Below are positions 3,823 through 39,319 of a DNA stretch of 64,000 nucleotides, piece after piece (within the stretch, counting starts at the first letter, position 1; each line of letters opens with the position of its first letter). The position numbers and the translations under genes are program-made. The DNA lies in NCBI GenBank assembly GCA_963706735.1, contig CAVPNQ010000116.1, positions 2,704-66,703 on the forward strand, given 5' to 3'. The stretch is from an uncultured Planctomycetia bacterium. Lineage in GTDB: Bacteria; Planctomycetota; MHYJ01; WSZJ01. A model generated the notes under the pieces. That model saw only the letters and a list, made by a program, of their open reading frames with translations, searched no databases and was not told the origin of the DNA.

Positions 3823-3921
3823 CCCTTAACCTCAACCTTTCCCTTTTCCTATCCCTGGTTCCCGAGCAGGCCCATGGGCCCGGAGAGGGGAAAGGAAAAG
3901 GGGAAGGTTAAGGTTAAGGGG
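3823..3921. repeat. long hairpin with low-complexity arms (CCCTTAACC family, copy 1)
   Basis: CCCTTAACCTCAACCTTTCCCTTTTCCTATCCC pairs with GGGAAAGGAAAAGGGGAAGGTTAAGGTTAAGGGG. The loop contains GGCCCATGGGCC. A second copy lies at 29620-29736. Confidence 0.8.
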
Positions 3922-13007: not shown

Positions 13008-13067
13008 TCGAAAGGGCAAACTCAAAACCGCGAAACGCAAAACCAAACGCCAAAAGCAAAAGGGAGA
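13008..13067. repeat. CAAA-rich 60-bp dispersed repeat (copy 1)
   Basis: CGAAAGGGCAAACTCAAAACCGCGAAACGCAAAACCAAACGCCAAAAGCAAAAGGGAGAAA is about 90 percent identical to the reverse complement of 27955-28015. Confidence 0.8.
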
Positions 13068-13200
13068 AACAAGATCCACGGACGACGCCACGCGGCAAAC
13101 CACCCGCCGACGCTGACCGGCTTGTCGTTTGCGGTTTGTCGTTTCCTTGAGGGTTCTCCATTTTGCCTTTGCCATTTCCCCTCCCGCCCTCCCCTTCCCA

Positions 13201-13246: not shown

Positions 13247-13319
13247 GGGGGTGTAGCTCAGCTGGGAGAGCGCGTGAATGGCATTCACGAGGTCGAGGGT
13301 TCGATCCCCTTCACCTCCA
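13247..13319 (+). tRNA. tRNA-Ala (anticodon GGC), CCA not encoded
   Basis: A manual cloverleaf fold fits. The acceptor stem is GGGGGTG/CACCTCC with the G3:U70 alanine identity pair, and the D arm is GCTC-AGCTGGGA-GAGC. The anticodon stem is CGTGA/TCACG with loop ATGGCAT, and the T arm is GAGGG-TTCGATC-CCCTT. Confidence 0.9.
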
Positions 13320-14644: not shown

Positions 14645-14764
14645 GCGCCGGCAAAGCCGGCGCCCCGTACCCGTGCGCGTGCCCGTGCCCCTGCCCGGCA
14701 TTGCCGTTTTTCGCCGTACACCGCAACGGCCGGGCACGGGCACGGGCACGCGCACGGGAACGGG
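14645..14764. repeat. 19-nt GC hairpin plus a long hairpin with CCCGTGC-type arms
   Basis: GCGCCGGCAAAGCCGGCGC is followed by CCCGTACCCGTGCGCGTGCCCGTGCCCCTGCCCGG, which pairs with CCGGGCACGGGCACGGGCACGCGCACGGGAACGGG. Confidence 0.8.
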
Positions 14765-29619: not shown

Positions 29620-29736
29620 GCCCTTAACCTTAACCTTTCCCTTTCCCTTTTCCTTTCCCGGCCTTTCGCCTGTGAGAAACGGCGGGTTAAGGAAAAGGGA
29701 AAGGTAAAGGTTAAGGGGCGCCGGCTTTGCCGGCGC
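29620..29736. repeat. long hairpin (CCCTTAACC family, copy 2) plus the 19-nt GC hairpin
   Basis: GCCCTTAACCTTAACCTTTCCCTTTCCCTTTTCCTTTCCC pairs with GGGTTAAGGAAAAGGGAAAGGTAAAGGTTAAGGGGC. It is followed by GCGCCGGCTTTGCCGGCGC, the exact reverse complement of 14645-14663. Confidence 0.8.
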
Positions 29737-34974: not shown

Positions 34975-35826
34975 ATGATTTACGGAGCAGGCGTCGACGT
35001 CGGGTCCACGCAGACCAAGGCCGTCATCCTCGGCGACGGGCGCGAGATCGTCGCGCGCGCGCTCGCCATGACCGGCGCCAACGTGACGAAGGCTGCCGAA
35101 CGCACCTTCAACGAGGCCCTCGCCGCCTCCGGGCTCGCGCGCGAACAGGTCGGCTACATCATCGGCACCGGTTACGGCCGCTACAAGGTCACCTTCGGCG
35201 ACTCCCAGGTCACCGAGATCTCCTGCCACGCCCGCGGCGCCCACTTCATGTTCCCCGGCACCCGCACCGTCATCGACATCGGCGGCCAGGACACGAAGGC
35301 CATCCGTGTCGGCACCCAGGGCGAGGTCGTGGACTTCGCCATGAACGACAAGTGCGCCGCCGGCACCGGTCGATTCCTCTCCGCCTCCGCCGAGGTCCTC
35401 GACCTCCCCCTCGACAAAATCGGCGCCCTCTCCCTCGAGGGCAAGGACCCCGTCCGCCTCTCCACCGTCTGCACCGTTTTCGTCGAATCCGACATCATGT
35501 CCTACCTCGCGCAGAACAAGAAAGTCCCCGACATCCTCGCCGGCGTCCACCGCGCCATCGCGGCACGCACCATCTCCCTCCTCCAGCGCATCGGCATGGC
35601 CGCCGAGTACACCATGACCGGCGGCGTCGCCCGCAACGTCGGCATGGTCACCTGTCTCGAGGAAAAGCTGAAAGCCCCCCTCAACGTCAGCTCCGATTCC
35701 CACTTCATGGGCGCCATCGGCGCCGCCCTCTTCGCCCTCGAACGCGCCGAGCTCGCTTCGCGCGGCAAACGCGAGGCCGCCGTCATCGGCGGCTGGGAAG
35801 ACGGCAGCCAGGAGACGACAAAATGA
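34975..35826 (+). CDS. BcrAD/BadFG-type ATPase subunit (activase-like), copy 1
   Basis: [41 protein letters not shown] and TGGVARN are present. Confidence 0.85.
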
Positions 35827-36614
35827 TCAGCGCCGGAATCGACCTGGGAAGCGGCTTCTCGAAGGCCCTCATCTACCGCGACGACGGCAAAGTCCTGGCG
35901 CGGGCGTTCGCGAAGACCCGCGCGGACTTCGACAAGGCCGCGCGCGAAGTCCTCGACGACGCCCTCGGGCAGGCGAAACTCACTCAATCCGACATCGCCT
36001 ACGTCTGCACCACCGGCCTCGGCCGCTACGCCGTCTCCTTCCGCGACATCCAGGTCACCGAAATCACCGCCGCCGCCCGCGGCGCCTGGACGCTCTTCAA
36101 CCAGGCCCAGTTCGTCCTGGACCTCGGCGCGCAGAGCACCCGCGCGATCCGGCTCCGCGACAACGGCAAGGTGAAGGAATTCCAGACGAACGAGAAGTGC
36201 GCCGCCGGCGGCGGAGCGTTCCTCGTCCGGGCCGCCAAGTACCTCGAAGTTCCGCTCGACTCCCTGGGCAAGCTCTCGATGGACGCGAAAGCCTCCCAGG
36301 CGATCTCGAGCGTCTGCGCCGTTCTCGCCGAGACCGAGATCATCAACCACGTTTCCGAGAACATCCCGATCGGCGACATCGCGCGCGGCATGCACGAATC
36401 GATGGCCGACCGCGCGATGGGCCTCCTCAAGAAGGTCGGCCTCAACGGCCCGCTCTGCCTCGTCGGCGGCGTGGCGATCCAGACCGGCTTCGTCGAGGCC
36501 TGCCGCCGGAAGTTCGGCGTGCCCCTCCTCGTCCCGGAGAATTCGCAATACGCCGCGGCGCTGGGCGCTGCCGTGCTGGGGATGCAGCGGGCGAAGAAGA
36601 GGGTGGCTGTTTAG
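35823..36614 (+). CDS. BcrAD/BadFG-type ATPase subunit, copy 2
   Basis: The ATGA start overlaps the previous stop. [35 protein letters not shown] and VGGVAIQ are present. Confidence 0.85.
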
Positions 36615-36814
36615 GTAGGAAGGCTGGCGAAGGCTGGCGAAGGCGTGCGAAGGCTGGCGAAGGCTGGCTAAAGGCTGCCTGAGGCCAAGCTGGGCGGGCC
36701 GTAGCCCCAAAGCGTCCCGACTTGTCTTCCAGTCGACTGACTCCAGCCAAGCTTGCGAGTGTTCCTTCTGCCAGCCTTCGCACGCCTTCGCACGCCTTCG
36801 CCAGCCTTCCCTAC
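36615..36814. repeat. long hairpin whose arms are 10-nt tandem repeats
   Basis: AGGCTGGCGA-type units occur 5 times at 36621-36670. They are mirrored by GCCTTCGCAC-type units at 36774-36808. The element sits between two convergent stop codons. Confidence 0.8.
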
Positions 36815-37845
36815 TTCCCCGGTATGACCACGCTCCTCACGCTCTTCCCCGCTCTCAGCTCGTCAAACGCCTCGTTCACTTTCTCCAGCGGCCGGCGCGA
36901 CGTCACCAGCGGGCCGAGCTTGTACTGGCCGCTTGCGCACATGGCGAGGACGCGCGGGAAGTCGACGGGACGGCAGCCGAGGGAGCCGACGACGTCCTGC
37001 TCCATGAACATGATCTTGCCGGCAAGCATCTCGACCGGCTTGTCCGCGAAGCCGACGATGCAGAGGCGGCCGCCGGCGCGGATCGAGTTGTGGGCGATGG
37101 GAATGACCTTGTGGCTGCCGATGCACTCCATGGCCTTGTCCACCCCGCCGCCAGTCTTCTTCTTGATCGTCTTGGCCACCTCGGGATCCTTCCCGTCGAT
37201 CGTGTCCGCCGCGCCCAGCTGCTTTGCCAGGACCAGCTTGGCCGGATCGAGGTCCACCGCGATGACGTGCGCGCCCGCAATCGCCGCGAACTGCACCGCC
37301 GACAGGCCGACGCCGCCGCAGCCGAAGATCGCCACCGTCTCGCCCGCACGGATCTGCGCCCGGTGCACCACCGCGTGGTACGCCGTCGTCACCGCGTCCG
37401 CCACGATCGAGGCCTCCACCGGGTCGAGGCCGGCGGGAAGCGGAATCAGGTCGCGCGCCCGCACGCACACGTACTCCGCGAACGCCCCGTCAATGTGGTT
37501 CCCCAGCATCTGCATCTTCTCGCAGATGTTCGACCGCCCCGTCCGGCAGAGCGTGCACTCCCCGCACGTCAGCACCGCGGGGACCAGCACCGCCTGCCCG
37601 ATCTTCAGATTCGCAACCCCCGCCCCCAGCGCGTCGATGTGCCCCGCCGGCTCGTGCCCCAGGATGATCGGCGGCTTCTTGAACGTCGGCACCCCATGAT
37701 CCAGGTAGTGCAGGTCCGTATGGCACAGCCCGCACGCCGCCACCTTCACCCGCGCTTCCCCCGCCGCAGGCTCCGGCACCGGCACGTCCTTGATCTCCAG
37801 CCCCTTGGCCCCCGCGAAGTACACCCCCGCCTTCATCGTCGCCAT
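36811..37845 (-). CDS. Zn-dependent alcohol dehydrogenase family (6-hydroxycyclohex-1-ene-1-carbonyl-CoA dehydrogenase/Had-like by context)
   Basis: CGLCHTDLH, GHEPAG, CGECTLCRTG and GCGGVGLSAVQ are present. The start MATMKAG overlaps the upstream stop (TAATG). Confidence 0.8.
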   Translation of the reverse strand: MATMKAGVYFAGAKGLEIKDVPVPEPAAGEARVKVAACGLCHTDLHYLDHGVPTFKKPPIILGHEPAGHIDALGAGVANLKIGQAVLVPAVLTCGECTLCRTGRSNICEKMQMLGNHIDGAFAEYVCVRARDLIPLPAGLDPVEASIVADAVTTAYHAVVHRAQIRAGETVAIFGCGGVGLSAVQFAAIAGAHVIAVDLDPAKLVLAKQLGAADTIDGKDPEVAKTIKKKTGGGVDKAMECIGSHKVIPIAHNSIRAGGRLCIVGFADKPVEMLAGKIMFMEQDVVGSLGCRPVDFPRVLAMCASGQYKLGPLVTSRRPLEKVNEAFDELRAGKSVRSVVIPGK

Positions 37846-38603
37846 TACGCGTCCTCCCACTTCGGTTTCCGTTTCTCCAGGAATGCCTTCAGCCCCTCGG
37901 CGTTGTCCTTCGAGGGAAGCGTTTTTTCGAGGTACGTCCGGCACGCCGCGGCATAGGCCGCGCGGCGGTTCGGGGCGGAAGCGGCTTCCCGGAGGCCCGT
38001 CTTGGCGGCGCCGAGGGCGGCGCCGGAGAAGCCGGCCAGTTTCGCGACCAGCGCTTCGACCTTCGCGTCGAGTTCCGCGTCCGGCGCGGAGTCGTTCACG
38101 AGCCCCCAGGCCGCAGCCTCTTTGCCGCTCAGCGTGCGGCCCGTGTAGACGAGTTCGGCCGCGCGCGCGACGCCGATGCGGGCCGGCAGGTCCACCGCCG
38201 CGGCGGGCGGAAAAACGCCGAGCGTGATCTCCGGGACGCCGAGCTTCGCTTCGTCCGCCGCCAGCACGAGGTCGCACGCCGCGGCGAGTTCCAGACCCGC
38301 GCCGAGGCACGCGCCGCGCGCCACGGCAACGATCGGCACCGGCGCTTCCGCGATGGAATTGAGCAGCCCCTGCAGCGTCTCGAGCAGCCCGGGGCCCTTG
38401 TCCGGGAAGTGTTCGCTGATATCGGCGCCCGCGGAGAGGTGCTTCCCTGCCCCGCGCAGCACGGCCACGCGGTCGGCGGGCTTGAGCGACCGGAATGCGC
38501 CGGTGAGTTCCTGCATCGCCGCGCAGGTCAGGATGTTGAGCGGCGGGTTCGCGAGCGTGACGTGCGCCGCGCCGCCCTTCCGTTCGACGGTGACAAGGCT
38601 CAT
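37845..38603 (-). CDS. enoyl-CoA hydratase/crotonase (dienoyl-CoA hydratase/Dch-like by context)
   Basis: VTLANPPLN, LRGAGKHLSAGADI, ARGACLGAGLELAAACD and GVPEITLGVFP are present. The ATGA start overlaps the SDR stop. Confidence 0.75.
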   Translation of the reverse strand: MSLVTVERKGGAAHVTLANPPLNILTCAAMQELTGAFRSLKPADRVAVLRGAGKHLSAGADISEHFPDKGPGLLETLQGLLNSIAEAPVPIVAVARGACLGAGLELAAACDLVLAADEAKLGVPEITLGVFPPAAAVDLPARIGVARAAELVYTGRTLSGKEAAAWGLVNDSAPDAELDAKVEALVAKLAGFSGAALGAAKTGLREAASAPNRRAAYAAACRTYLEKTLPSKDNAEGLKAFLEKRKPKWEDA

Positions 38604-39319
38604 GCGAGCTGACCTCCATCCACGCGGATGACCTCGCCGGAAATGTGGCGCGAGCCGGGCGCGCACAGGAACGCGACGACTTCGGCGACGTCCTCGGGCG
38701 TGGCGATGCGCCCCAGGGCGGTTTCCTCCGCGAGCTTCTTCTTCGTCTCGGGCGGGACGTCCTTCGTGAGTTGCGTCTCGACCAGCCCGGGCGCGACCGC
38801 GTTCACGTTGATCCCGTCGCGGCCGAGGTCTCGCGCGGCCCCGCGCGTGAGCCCGATCAGCCCTGCCTTCGCGGCCGCGTACGCCGCCGTGCCGCGACGC
38901 GCCCGCAGCGCCAGGGTCGAAGCGATATTCACGATCCGTCCGCCGCCGGCGGCGGTCATGGCGGGGGCGACCTCGCGGATGAAGACGTACGCGCCGGTCA
39001 GGTCCACGCCGATCGTCGCGTCCCAGTGCTCCTGCGACAGGCGCGGAAGCGGCCCGCCCAGGGAGATCCCGGCGCAGTTCACGAGCGCCTTCACCGGCGC
39101 GCCGCGCGCGGTCAGCCACGCCACGGCCTTCTGCGCCGTCGCCGCTTCCCGCACGTCGCCCTTCACCGCCGCGTTTCCGGCCACGTCCACCACGCAGACG
39201 AAGTACCCGTCCCGCTCGAGACACCGCGAGATCGCCGCGCCGATCCCGGCCGCGCCGCCCGTCACGATGGCGCCGCGCGCCGACGATTTTGCCGGCCGCT
39301 TATTTCCCCGTGACGGCAT
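38600..39319 (-). CDS. short-chain dehydrogenase/reductase (FabG-like)
   Basis: TGGAAGIG, NCAG, the YAAAKAG catalytic motif, and a PG..T tail are present. Confidence 0.8.
   Translation of the reverse strand: MPSRGNKRPAKSSARGAIVTGGAAGIGAAISRCLERDGYFVCVVDVAGNAAVKGDVREAATAQKAVAWLTARGAPVKALVNCAGISLGGPLPRLSQEHWDATIGVDLTGAYVFIREVAPAMTAAGGGRIVNIASTLALRARRGTAAYAAAKAGLIGLTRGAARDLGRDGINVNAVAPGLVETQLTKDVPPETKKKLAEETALGRIATPEDVAEVVAFLCAPGSRHISGEVIRVDGGQLA

Follow-up and report, generated by a model that had tools for sequence, protein, structure and literature searches.

In the 64,000-nt stretch of DNA analysed (the window), the last BcrA/BcrD-type ATPase gene (bcr) and a Zn-ADH gene (Had-like; had) converge, and an inverted repeat at 36618-36810 occupies the space between them (Table 1). 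Its spacer is about 85-111 nt long, and its stem stands against the stop codons on both sides. The inverted-repeat search found two arm pairs, one of 46 nt per arm (36629-36674/36764-36809, 91% complementary, 89 nt separating) and one of 41 nt per arm (36618-36658/36770-36810, 95% complementary, 111 nt separating). TRF gives a period of 10 with 5.8 copies at 36619-36677 and 3.6 copies at 36774-36809, unit numbers that short-read assembly could have collapsed. After the ATPase stop codon the sequence reads GTAG and then, as the left arm, GAAGGCTGGC, GAAGGCTGGC, GAAGGCGTGC, GAAGGCTGGC, GAAGGCTGGC, TAAAGGCTGC. The right arm reads GCCAGCCTTC, GCACGCCTTC, GCACGCCTTC, GCCAGCCTTC-C and ends at 36810. 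Repeat search, TRF and reading of the sequence agree with an earlier note on this DNA, which had described a 200-bp hairpin with arms of 10-nt tandem repeats between convergent genes. The overlap of the arms with the Had-like stop codon, also claimed there, applies to the predicted stem, which covers both stop codons, but not to the tandem array, which only abuts.

Both neighbours of the hairpin are protein-coding genes, and it is not located in an rRNA gene. The 85-nt interior is non-coding and contains no PF05635 ORF. It has no match in its own genome or in 40 relatives and is thus unique. Rfam models match only tRNA in the whole window and nothing at the hairpin.

Table 1. The window hairpin with its flanking stop codons, and the other periodic-armed hairpins of the window
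Feature	Position	Strand	Description
Stop codon TAG of last BcrA/BcrD-type ATPase gene	36612..36614	+	ORF 35352..36614; PF01869 BcrAD_BadFG 1.4e-49; 4 nt ahead of left arm
Left arm	36618..36678	+	5.8 tandem 10-mers GAAGGCTGGC, one GAAGGCGTGC variant; final unit degenerate
Spacer/loop (about 85 nt)	36679..36763		Decayed decamer units at either edge; small hairpins inside
Right arm	36764..36810	+	Inverted series GCCAGCCTTC / GCACGCCTTC, 3.6-4.5 units
CTA, stop codon of Zn-ADH (Had-like) ORF	36811..36813	-	ADH_N 6e-30, ADH_zinc_N 6e-29; right arm directly abuts
Periodic hairpin, CCTTAA/CCTTTC 6-mers	3823..3921		Same arms flank PF05635 gene G000:C79:21062-21373
Periodic hairpin, AAACGCA/TTGTCGT 7-mers	13018..13144		About 100 nt upstream of tRNA gene 13247-13319
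Periodic hairpin, CCCGTG 6-mers	14645..14764		Array 14664-14764; small hairpin GCGCCGGCAAAGCCGGCGC precedes; 18 family copies in genome
Periodic hairpin, CCTTAA/CCTTTC 6-mers	29620..29736		Array 29620-29716; same small GC hairpin follows in inverse orientation

Folding of both strands, proposed in the earlier note, gives an extremely stable stem with z-scores from -9.3 to -10.7 for RNA and DNA. The RNA folds at -137.2 kcal/mol on the plus strand (z -9.3) and at -136.4 on the minus strand (z -10.7), the DNA at -76.3 (z -9.5), and 0 of 200 shuffles fold as well. A stem of about 45-50 bp would end both convergent transcripts; it would block exonucleases from the 3' side and could plausibly be cut by RNase III, as are the stems of rRNA IVS elements. 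Terminator-like sites are absent from both strands of 36300-37100, the stem is not followed by a U-tract in either direction, and a promoter scan of the locus was negative as well. The hairpin thus does not qualify as a canonical intrinsic terminator, and the earlier distinction from a normal bidirectional terminator stands. Its local effect is likely to be incidental, and the window copy itself probably has little functional consequence.

Periodic-armed hairpins and the genes between their arms

The source genome (G000) is a metagenome-assembled genome (MAG) of 5.3 Mb in 203 contigs, with 67% GC and 82.6% completeness. TRF arrays were paired with nearby reverse-complement arrays over the whole assembly. 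About 118 periodic-armed hairpins were found, so the window hairpin is not a one-off. Their arms are uniform in size (medians 34 nt and 5.3 units), and the spacer between them has a median of 41 nt. Units of 10 nt occur in 12 hairpins, of 6 nt in 42, and of 7 nt in 61, and the two arms differ by at least 2 units in 24 of the 118. More than 10 unit families exist, including AAACGAA, CCCGTG, GAGTTCG, AGTTGCG, GGGGGC, CCTTAA, GGCCAGC, and GAAGGCTGGC. Three hairpins of the window that had been named before as having periodic arms of other units (at 3823, 14645 and 29620) are real and of the same build. The AAACGCA/TTGTCGT family, also present in the window, has a conserved interior elsewhere, where 15 copies share an 81-nt core with 88-90% identity. 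Conserved interiors are found in the CAAACGC, GAGTTCG, and GGGGGC families, and the decamer, CCCGTG, and AAACGAA families conserve their arms, not their loops.

The decamer family, to which the window hairpin belongs, has about 24 loci with GAAGGCNNGC arrays in G000 according to a regular-expression census (13 two-armed and 11 solo, 2-25 units per arm), and it is also present in five congeners. Its polarity is invariably GAAGGC...GCCTTC. The arms are frequently very asymmetric (e.g., 4 and 25 units on contig C121). The loops are unrelated, and none of them matches any non-self locus in the genome or in 40 relatives. Arrays of 21-25 units (>200 nt) are found in one arm only at G000:C121:38724-39054 and G000:C193:2891-3329; being near short-read length, they may be collapsed, or break contigs, in the MAG.

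The best PF05635 match of G000 (C201:3499-3792, 116.8 bits) is flanked by one 9-unit decamer arm on each side. A TTGACA-N17-TACATT promoter and a ribosome-binding site are predicted from the sequence, both inside the arms. TIGR02436, "four helix bundle protein", recognises the encoded protein of 119 aa (6e-31), which also matches PDB 2GSC, XCC0516 of X. campestris (4e-23). XCC0516 is reported to form a homopentameric toroid (PMC4990558). The PF05635 family was originally discovered within intervening sequences (IVS) of 23S rRNA. One study calls it functionally uncharacterised and also finds it where the rRNA of CPR bacteria has insertions (PMC11270868). Another notes that PF05635 (2GSC) and Avd (4DWL) are homologous (PMC10053308).

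G000 has seven PF05635 genes. Six of them are flanked by long inverted arms, one pair of which belongs to the CCTTAA family seen in the window. To our knowledge, PF05635 is no known recombinase. Both PF13366 genes of G000 (GxxExxY, PD-(D/E)XK) also lie between long inverted arms, and this nuclease-fold cargo is a candidate mobility factor. The genes found between such arms encode only proteins of about 110-155 aa (four-helix-bundle, GxxExxY, and zinc-ribbon).

Some of these cassettes have features of their own. In the two GxxExxY (TIGR04256/PF13366) cassettes, G000:C108:2238-2876 and G000:C60:16516-17100, one arm pair is 10-mer periodic (TCCGTGCCTG) and the other is 73 nt long and non-periodic. 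At G000:C72:6910-7399, GCGAGCG/GCCAGCG heptamer arms surround a 108-aa double zinc-ribbon ORF that has no family assignment. The same arm type has a PF05635 gene inside in G005:C197 and nothing inside at the C201 site of G003.

The association of PF05635 genes with periodic inverted arms was also assessed beyond the source genome. For Planctomycetota, arms with a period of 7-9 nt were counted at an alignment score of at least 35 and an autocorrelation of at least 0.6. When the best PF05635 gene of each genome was taken, 21 of 27 other Planctomycetota had such arms, compared with 1 of 366 random small genes of G000 under the same criterion. Homologues of the C201 protein were taken from many phyla (Bacteroidota, CPR, Verrucomicrobiota, and others), and arms were found at 20 of 76 under a strict criterion and at 38 of 76 under a relaxed one (arms within 130 nt). 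Controls for this set were pseudo-genes placed 1 kb off in the same loci (strict 2/138, relaxed 0/138) and random G000 genes (strict 1/368, relaxed 2/368). In literature searches no paper was found that links periodic-armed hairpins generally to PF05635.

Turnover of the sites in related genomes

The relatives used for comparison are MAGs labelled Planctomycetia or Planctomycetota. Among G000-G006, bcr and had are adjacent only in G000 (window 35352-38619) and G005, whose 213-nt gap is occupied by a different palindrome without periodicity. Variable content of 6.5-14 kb separates the two genes in G001-G004 and G006, so that the window hairpin lies at a junction where the benzoyl-CoA gene cluster has been rearranged. 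The had stop codon is followed by a related GGAGGCTGCG decamer hairpin in G002 and by small GC hairpins of the ordinary kind, with T-runs, in G001 and G003. The hairpins behind had are thus different or small in congeners, and the window hairpin is therefore no conserved part of either operon. The earlier note had framed it as a structure of the two convergent operons. This framing does not hold, since the elements are dispersed: they occur in gap contexts of background proportions (see below), at about 24 unrelated decamer loci, and with a PF05635 gene inside at C201. The window hairpin belongs to a dispersed repeat whose sites turn over readily, and its place between the operons is coincidental.

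For the turnover comparison, concatenated flanks of 12 decamer loci were searched in five congeners (G001-G005). The closest homologue of the C201 protein in these genomes, at G001:C49:5080-5430, has 76% identity. It also has decamer arms (about 13 units) and lies among different neighbour genes. The C201 site in G001 has no cassette, only a small plain hairpin. These comparisons are evidence that the C201-type gene and its decamer arms may relocate together. More distant paralogues of C201 (41-54% identity) each have different arm units. Protein pairs of at least 60% identity (n=2) share arms, with a mean similarity of 0.58 versus 0.18; over 120 cassette pairs there is no significant correlation between protein identity and arm similarity (Spearman 0.12, p 0.18).

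The C201 site itself has several forms. In G004 it holds a short gene-less decamer hairpin whose right junction, CAGCCTYCGCCAGCCTGTATCAT, matches the G000 cassette at 25 of 27 nt. Since the gene-less hairpin of G004 and the gene-bearing one of G000 have this junction in common, they are taken as alternative states of one insertion. In G003 the site has a GGCCAGC heptamer hairpin and in G005 a non-periodic palindrome.

Other sites behave similarly in the comparison of related genomes that the earlier note had called for, where they are empty or hold other hairpins. The C20 site is empty in G001 and G004, with 14-22 nt from the stop codon to the next hairpin. It holds a non-periodic palindrome in G003, a solo 14-mer array in G005, and in G002 an 8-mer-armed hairpin that has a textbook terminator for its loop. 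The C9 site is likewise empty in G001 and G004, and has decamer hairpins with different loops and unit variants in G000, G003, and G002. The arms abut stop codons because the original spacers were very short. In comparisons of filled and empty states at three sites, no target-site duplication and no defined insertion junction were visible.

Two kinds of hairpin in congeners differ from the common build. One in G002 (L061, C24:36433-36835) has GCGGGCAG 8-mer arms around a loop in which GACCTCCGAATTCGGAAGGTC and then T8 make up a textbook intrinsic terminator. It seems from this that arms can flank a pre-existing terminator or keep the cassette's own. G005 has its own non-periodic palindrome family (core CTGCGGCCGTTTCCGCG...CGCGGAAACGGCCGCAG; L014 2530-2740, L056) at post-stop sites that hold periodic hairpins in other congeners.

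Origin of the window hairpin and its relation to known elements

The window hairpin likely belongs to a dispersed family of IVS-like cassettes located outside rRNA, as a member that lacks an ORF. In this family tandem short repeats are followed by a variable interior and then by the same repeats inverted, and we consider it likely that the window copy arose by insertion and by loss or replacement of the interior. The same decamer arms surround a PF05635-family gene elsewhere in the genome, which points to selfish or parasitic DNA rather than a purpose-built terminator. Full-length members have one small gene with its own promoter between the arms, usually PF05635/TIGR02436 and less often GxxExxY PD-(D/E)XK. 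In the window, an element would have inserted into a tiny spacer behind the stop codons, and its interior would then have been lost or replaced. We infer this descent from a gene-bearing copy from the family as a whole; the loop has no detectable similarity to any cassette interior. Arm lengths may drift via replication slippage. The centres would be remodelled when long palindromes break and are repaired at the tip. Palindromes are generally unstable, and this is the basis for the proposed origin of variable centres and unequal arms. To be counted against the cassette reading is that cargo varies within one arm type: GCGAGCG/GCCAGCG arms go with a PF05635 gene in G005 and with the zinc-ribbon ORF in G000 (C72). 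A telomerase-like or RT-templated origin of the arms found no support, as the two RT genes of G000 (C132, C76) are unlinked to cassettes.

The hairpin could instead be an oversized bidirectional terminator, or a 3'-end stabiliser for the bcr/had transcripts, selected by the host. We regard this as unlikely. Its position exactly between two convergent stop codons would be as expected, and so would the extreme stability of the stem on both strands, but a U-tract and terminator-like sites are missing on both strands. The congeners can be read in its favour, as the had 3' end is followed by ordinary small hairpins with T-runs in G001 and G003 and a related hairpin at the C20 site of G002 has a terminator as its loop, although the site is not conserved among them. 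The median distance of periodic hairpins from gene 3' ends is 21 nt and from 5' ends 68 nt, a bias towards 3' ends that would also be expected if insertions near promoters were purged. Their gap contexts (convergent/tandem/divergent, 16/68/17) have the same proportions as all gaps of the genome (572/2104/570). The share in divergent gaps is thus as expected by chance (17/101 versus 570/3246), and a terminator-specific role for the periodic hairpins was rejected for this reason. These background proportions and the missing U-tract argue against a dedicated terminator role. Neither the same arms at 24 unrelated loci and around a gene nor their frequent strong asymmetry (e.g., 4 versus 25 units) would fit a terminator.

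It is also quite improbable that the hairpins grew in situ from ordinary terminators by slippage, which would duplicate part of the stem, and quasi-palindrome template switching, which would copy the duplicate into the opposite arm, their resemblance being due to gene conversion and not to mobility. Loops that are site-specific and unrelated would agree with such growth, as would the differing loops and unit variants of the orthologous C9 hairpins in G000, G003, and G002, the highly variable unit numbers (24/118 with arms differing by at least 2 units), and the G002 hairpin that encloses a terminator. It leaves unexplained, however, why 24 non-homologous loci and five congeners share identical 10-nt units, how a gene of 76% identity comes to have the same arms at a site that is not orthologous, and why empty sites have a spacer of only 14-22 nt. 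Whole elements are also conserved in some families, e.g., the 81-nt core present 15 times at 88-90%, which speaks against it as well.

A conventional MITE, i.e., a deletion derivative of a DDE-transposase IS with repetitive terminal inverted repeats, is very improbable. The window element shares with MITEs and REP/BIME elements its small size, its palindromic structure, the lack of coding sequence, and the occurrence in multiple intergenic copies, and all of these may incidentally affect mRNA 3' ends. The terminal inverted repeats and presence/absence polymorphism of the window element would suit a MITE. Unlike MITEs and REP/BIME elements, it has variable tandem-unit arms (2-25 units in the family), interiors that are not conserved between copies, no target-site duplication at the sites compared, and no cognate DDE or RAYT transposase. 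The genes between the arms are not transposases, and no Y1/RAYT transposase (PF01797) was found in G000, an assembly that is 82.6% complete. REP/BIME elements are short palindromes of 20-40 nt and the window element is 200 bp; for this reason and for the missing Y1 transposase, a REP/RAYT identity was rejected.

Assemblers can create inverted repeats and the genome is a MAG of 203 contigs, but a fold-back chimera, the mis-assembly considered in the earlier note, has a negligible chance of being the explanation, given that the hairpin lies mid-contig (39.3 kb into 71.9 kb) with a different gene on each side, its arms are imperfect and unequal, and the decamer family occurs in five independently assembled congeners, at some orthologous sites.

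The window element is best compared with IVS elements. It represents a variant of the IVS-like or tandem-repeat-armed cassettes that has 10-nt units, lies outside rRNA, and lacks an ORF. An IVS with an S23p ORF in rRNA has been known since 1990. The IVS of Coxiella has a stem of 28-bp terminal inverted repeats and is excised by RNase III; next to its S23p ORF are tandem GACAGAT heptamers in 2-3 copies, a number that varies between strains (PMC4990558). As in the decamer family, the 23S rRNA IVS of Coxiella burnetii, Leptospira, Brucella, and Xanthomonas has a long stem formed by terminal inverted repeats. It also resembles the decamer family in the tandem short repeats in or next to the stem, the number of which varies between strains, and in an interior that is either an S23p/PF05635 four-helix-bundle ORF or nothing, and both are regarded as selfish. 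Unlike the 23S IVS, the window element lies outside rRNA, its unit is 10 nt and not 7, the arms are far longer (40-250 nt), and the window copy has no ORF. The 23S genes of G002-G005 are 2992-2993 nt long, compared with a model of 2925 positions, and thus have no large insertion (IVS).

Heptamer repeats are another known system of this kind. Xanthomonas campestris and X. axonopodis have 70-75 convergent pairs of GGGAATC arrays per genome, which have been read as G-quadruplex motifs, with S23p unmentioned and no gene linked to them (PMC4692102). Like the decamer hairpins, these are intergenic short-unit arrays, often in opposite-strand pairs that can form stem-loops, and their lengths vary between related genomes. 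The cyanobacterial STRR heptamer repeats are likewise intergenic tandem arrays of short units. Unlike the Xanthomonas heptamers, the window unit is 10 nt long and lacks G3 tracts, having GG runs only, and arm types found here enclose PF05635 or GxxExxY genes. Units of 7 nt, as in Xanthomonas, do occur in 61 of the 118 hairpins of G000.

Avd of diversity-generating retroelements is a pentameric four-helix-bundle protein that binds nucleic acid. It is homologous to the cargo protein, which has a weak match to NCBIfam DivGenRetAVD (0.0074). Unlike in these retroelements, the cassettes have no adjoining reverse transcriptase and no template/variable repeat pair. It is possible, though we hold it as a tentative suggestion, that the arms are arrays of recognition sites for a pentameric cassette protein, with about 5 units per arm, perhaps one for each subunit. 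The protein would act in trans, possibly aided by the GxxExxY nuclease of sister cassettes, to maintain or mobilise both gene-bearing cassettes and gene-less hairpins, the latter being far more numerous. If true, these elements would be mobile DNA of a new class, lacking any recognisable transposase, and the same mechanism would explain the rRNA IVS and the long-unexplained heptamer repeats (STRR, GGGAATC).

Three puzzles that are usually kept apart meet in these elements: the rRNA IVS with its S23p ORF, the abundant heptamer repeats of Xanthomonas and Cyanobacteria, and the TIGR02436 and GxxExxY families, which are very widespread but uncharacterised. In this genome one repeat unit is seen in three states, flanking a four-helix-bundle gene, flanking no gene, and in solo arrays. 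The interest of the class is that its protein partner and its mobility are now testable, with a 119-aa protein and a 10-nt cognate repeat as a concrete hypothesis. For annotation, large hairpins at gene ends in these bacteria should mostly be taken as mobile or parasitic DNA and not as regulatory design. Structural variation concentrates at them, and assemblies probably break there.

A preference for insertion next to small GC hairpins was considered and rejected, as their enrichment beside the arms is weak (11/118 versus 64/1646). A small perfect hairpin, GCGCCGGC-AAA-GCCGGCGC or GCGCCGCC-NNN-GGCGGCGC, is found directly beside elements of two families, at 14645-14663 and 29718-29736 of the window and at G000:C97:7650-12900.
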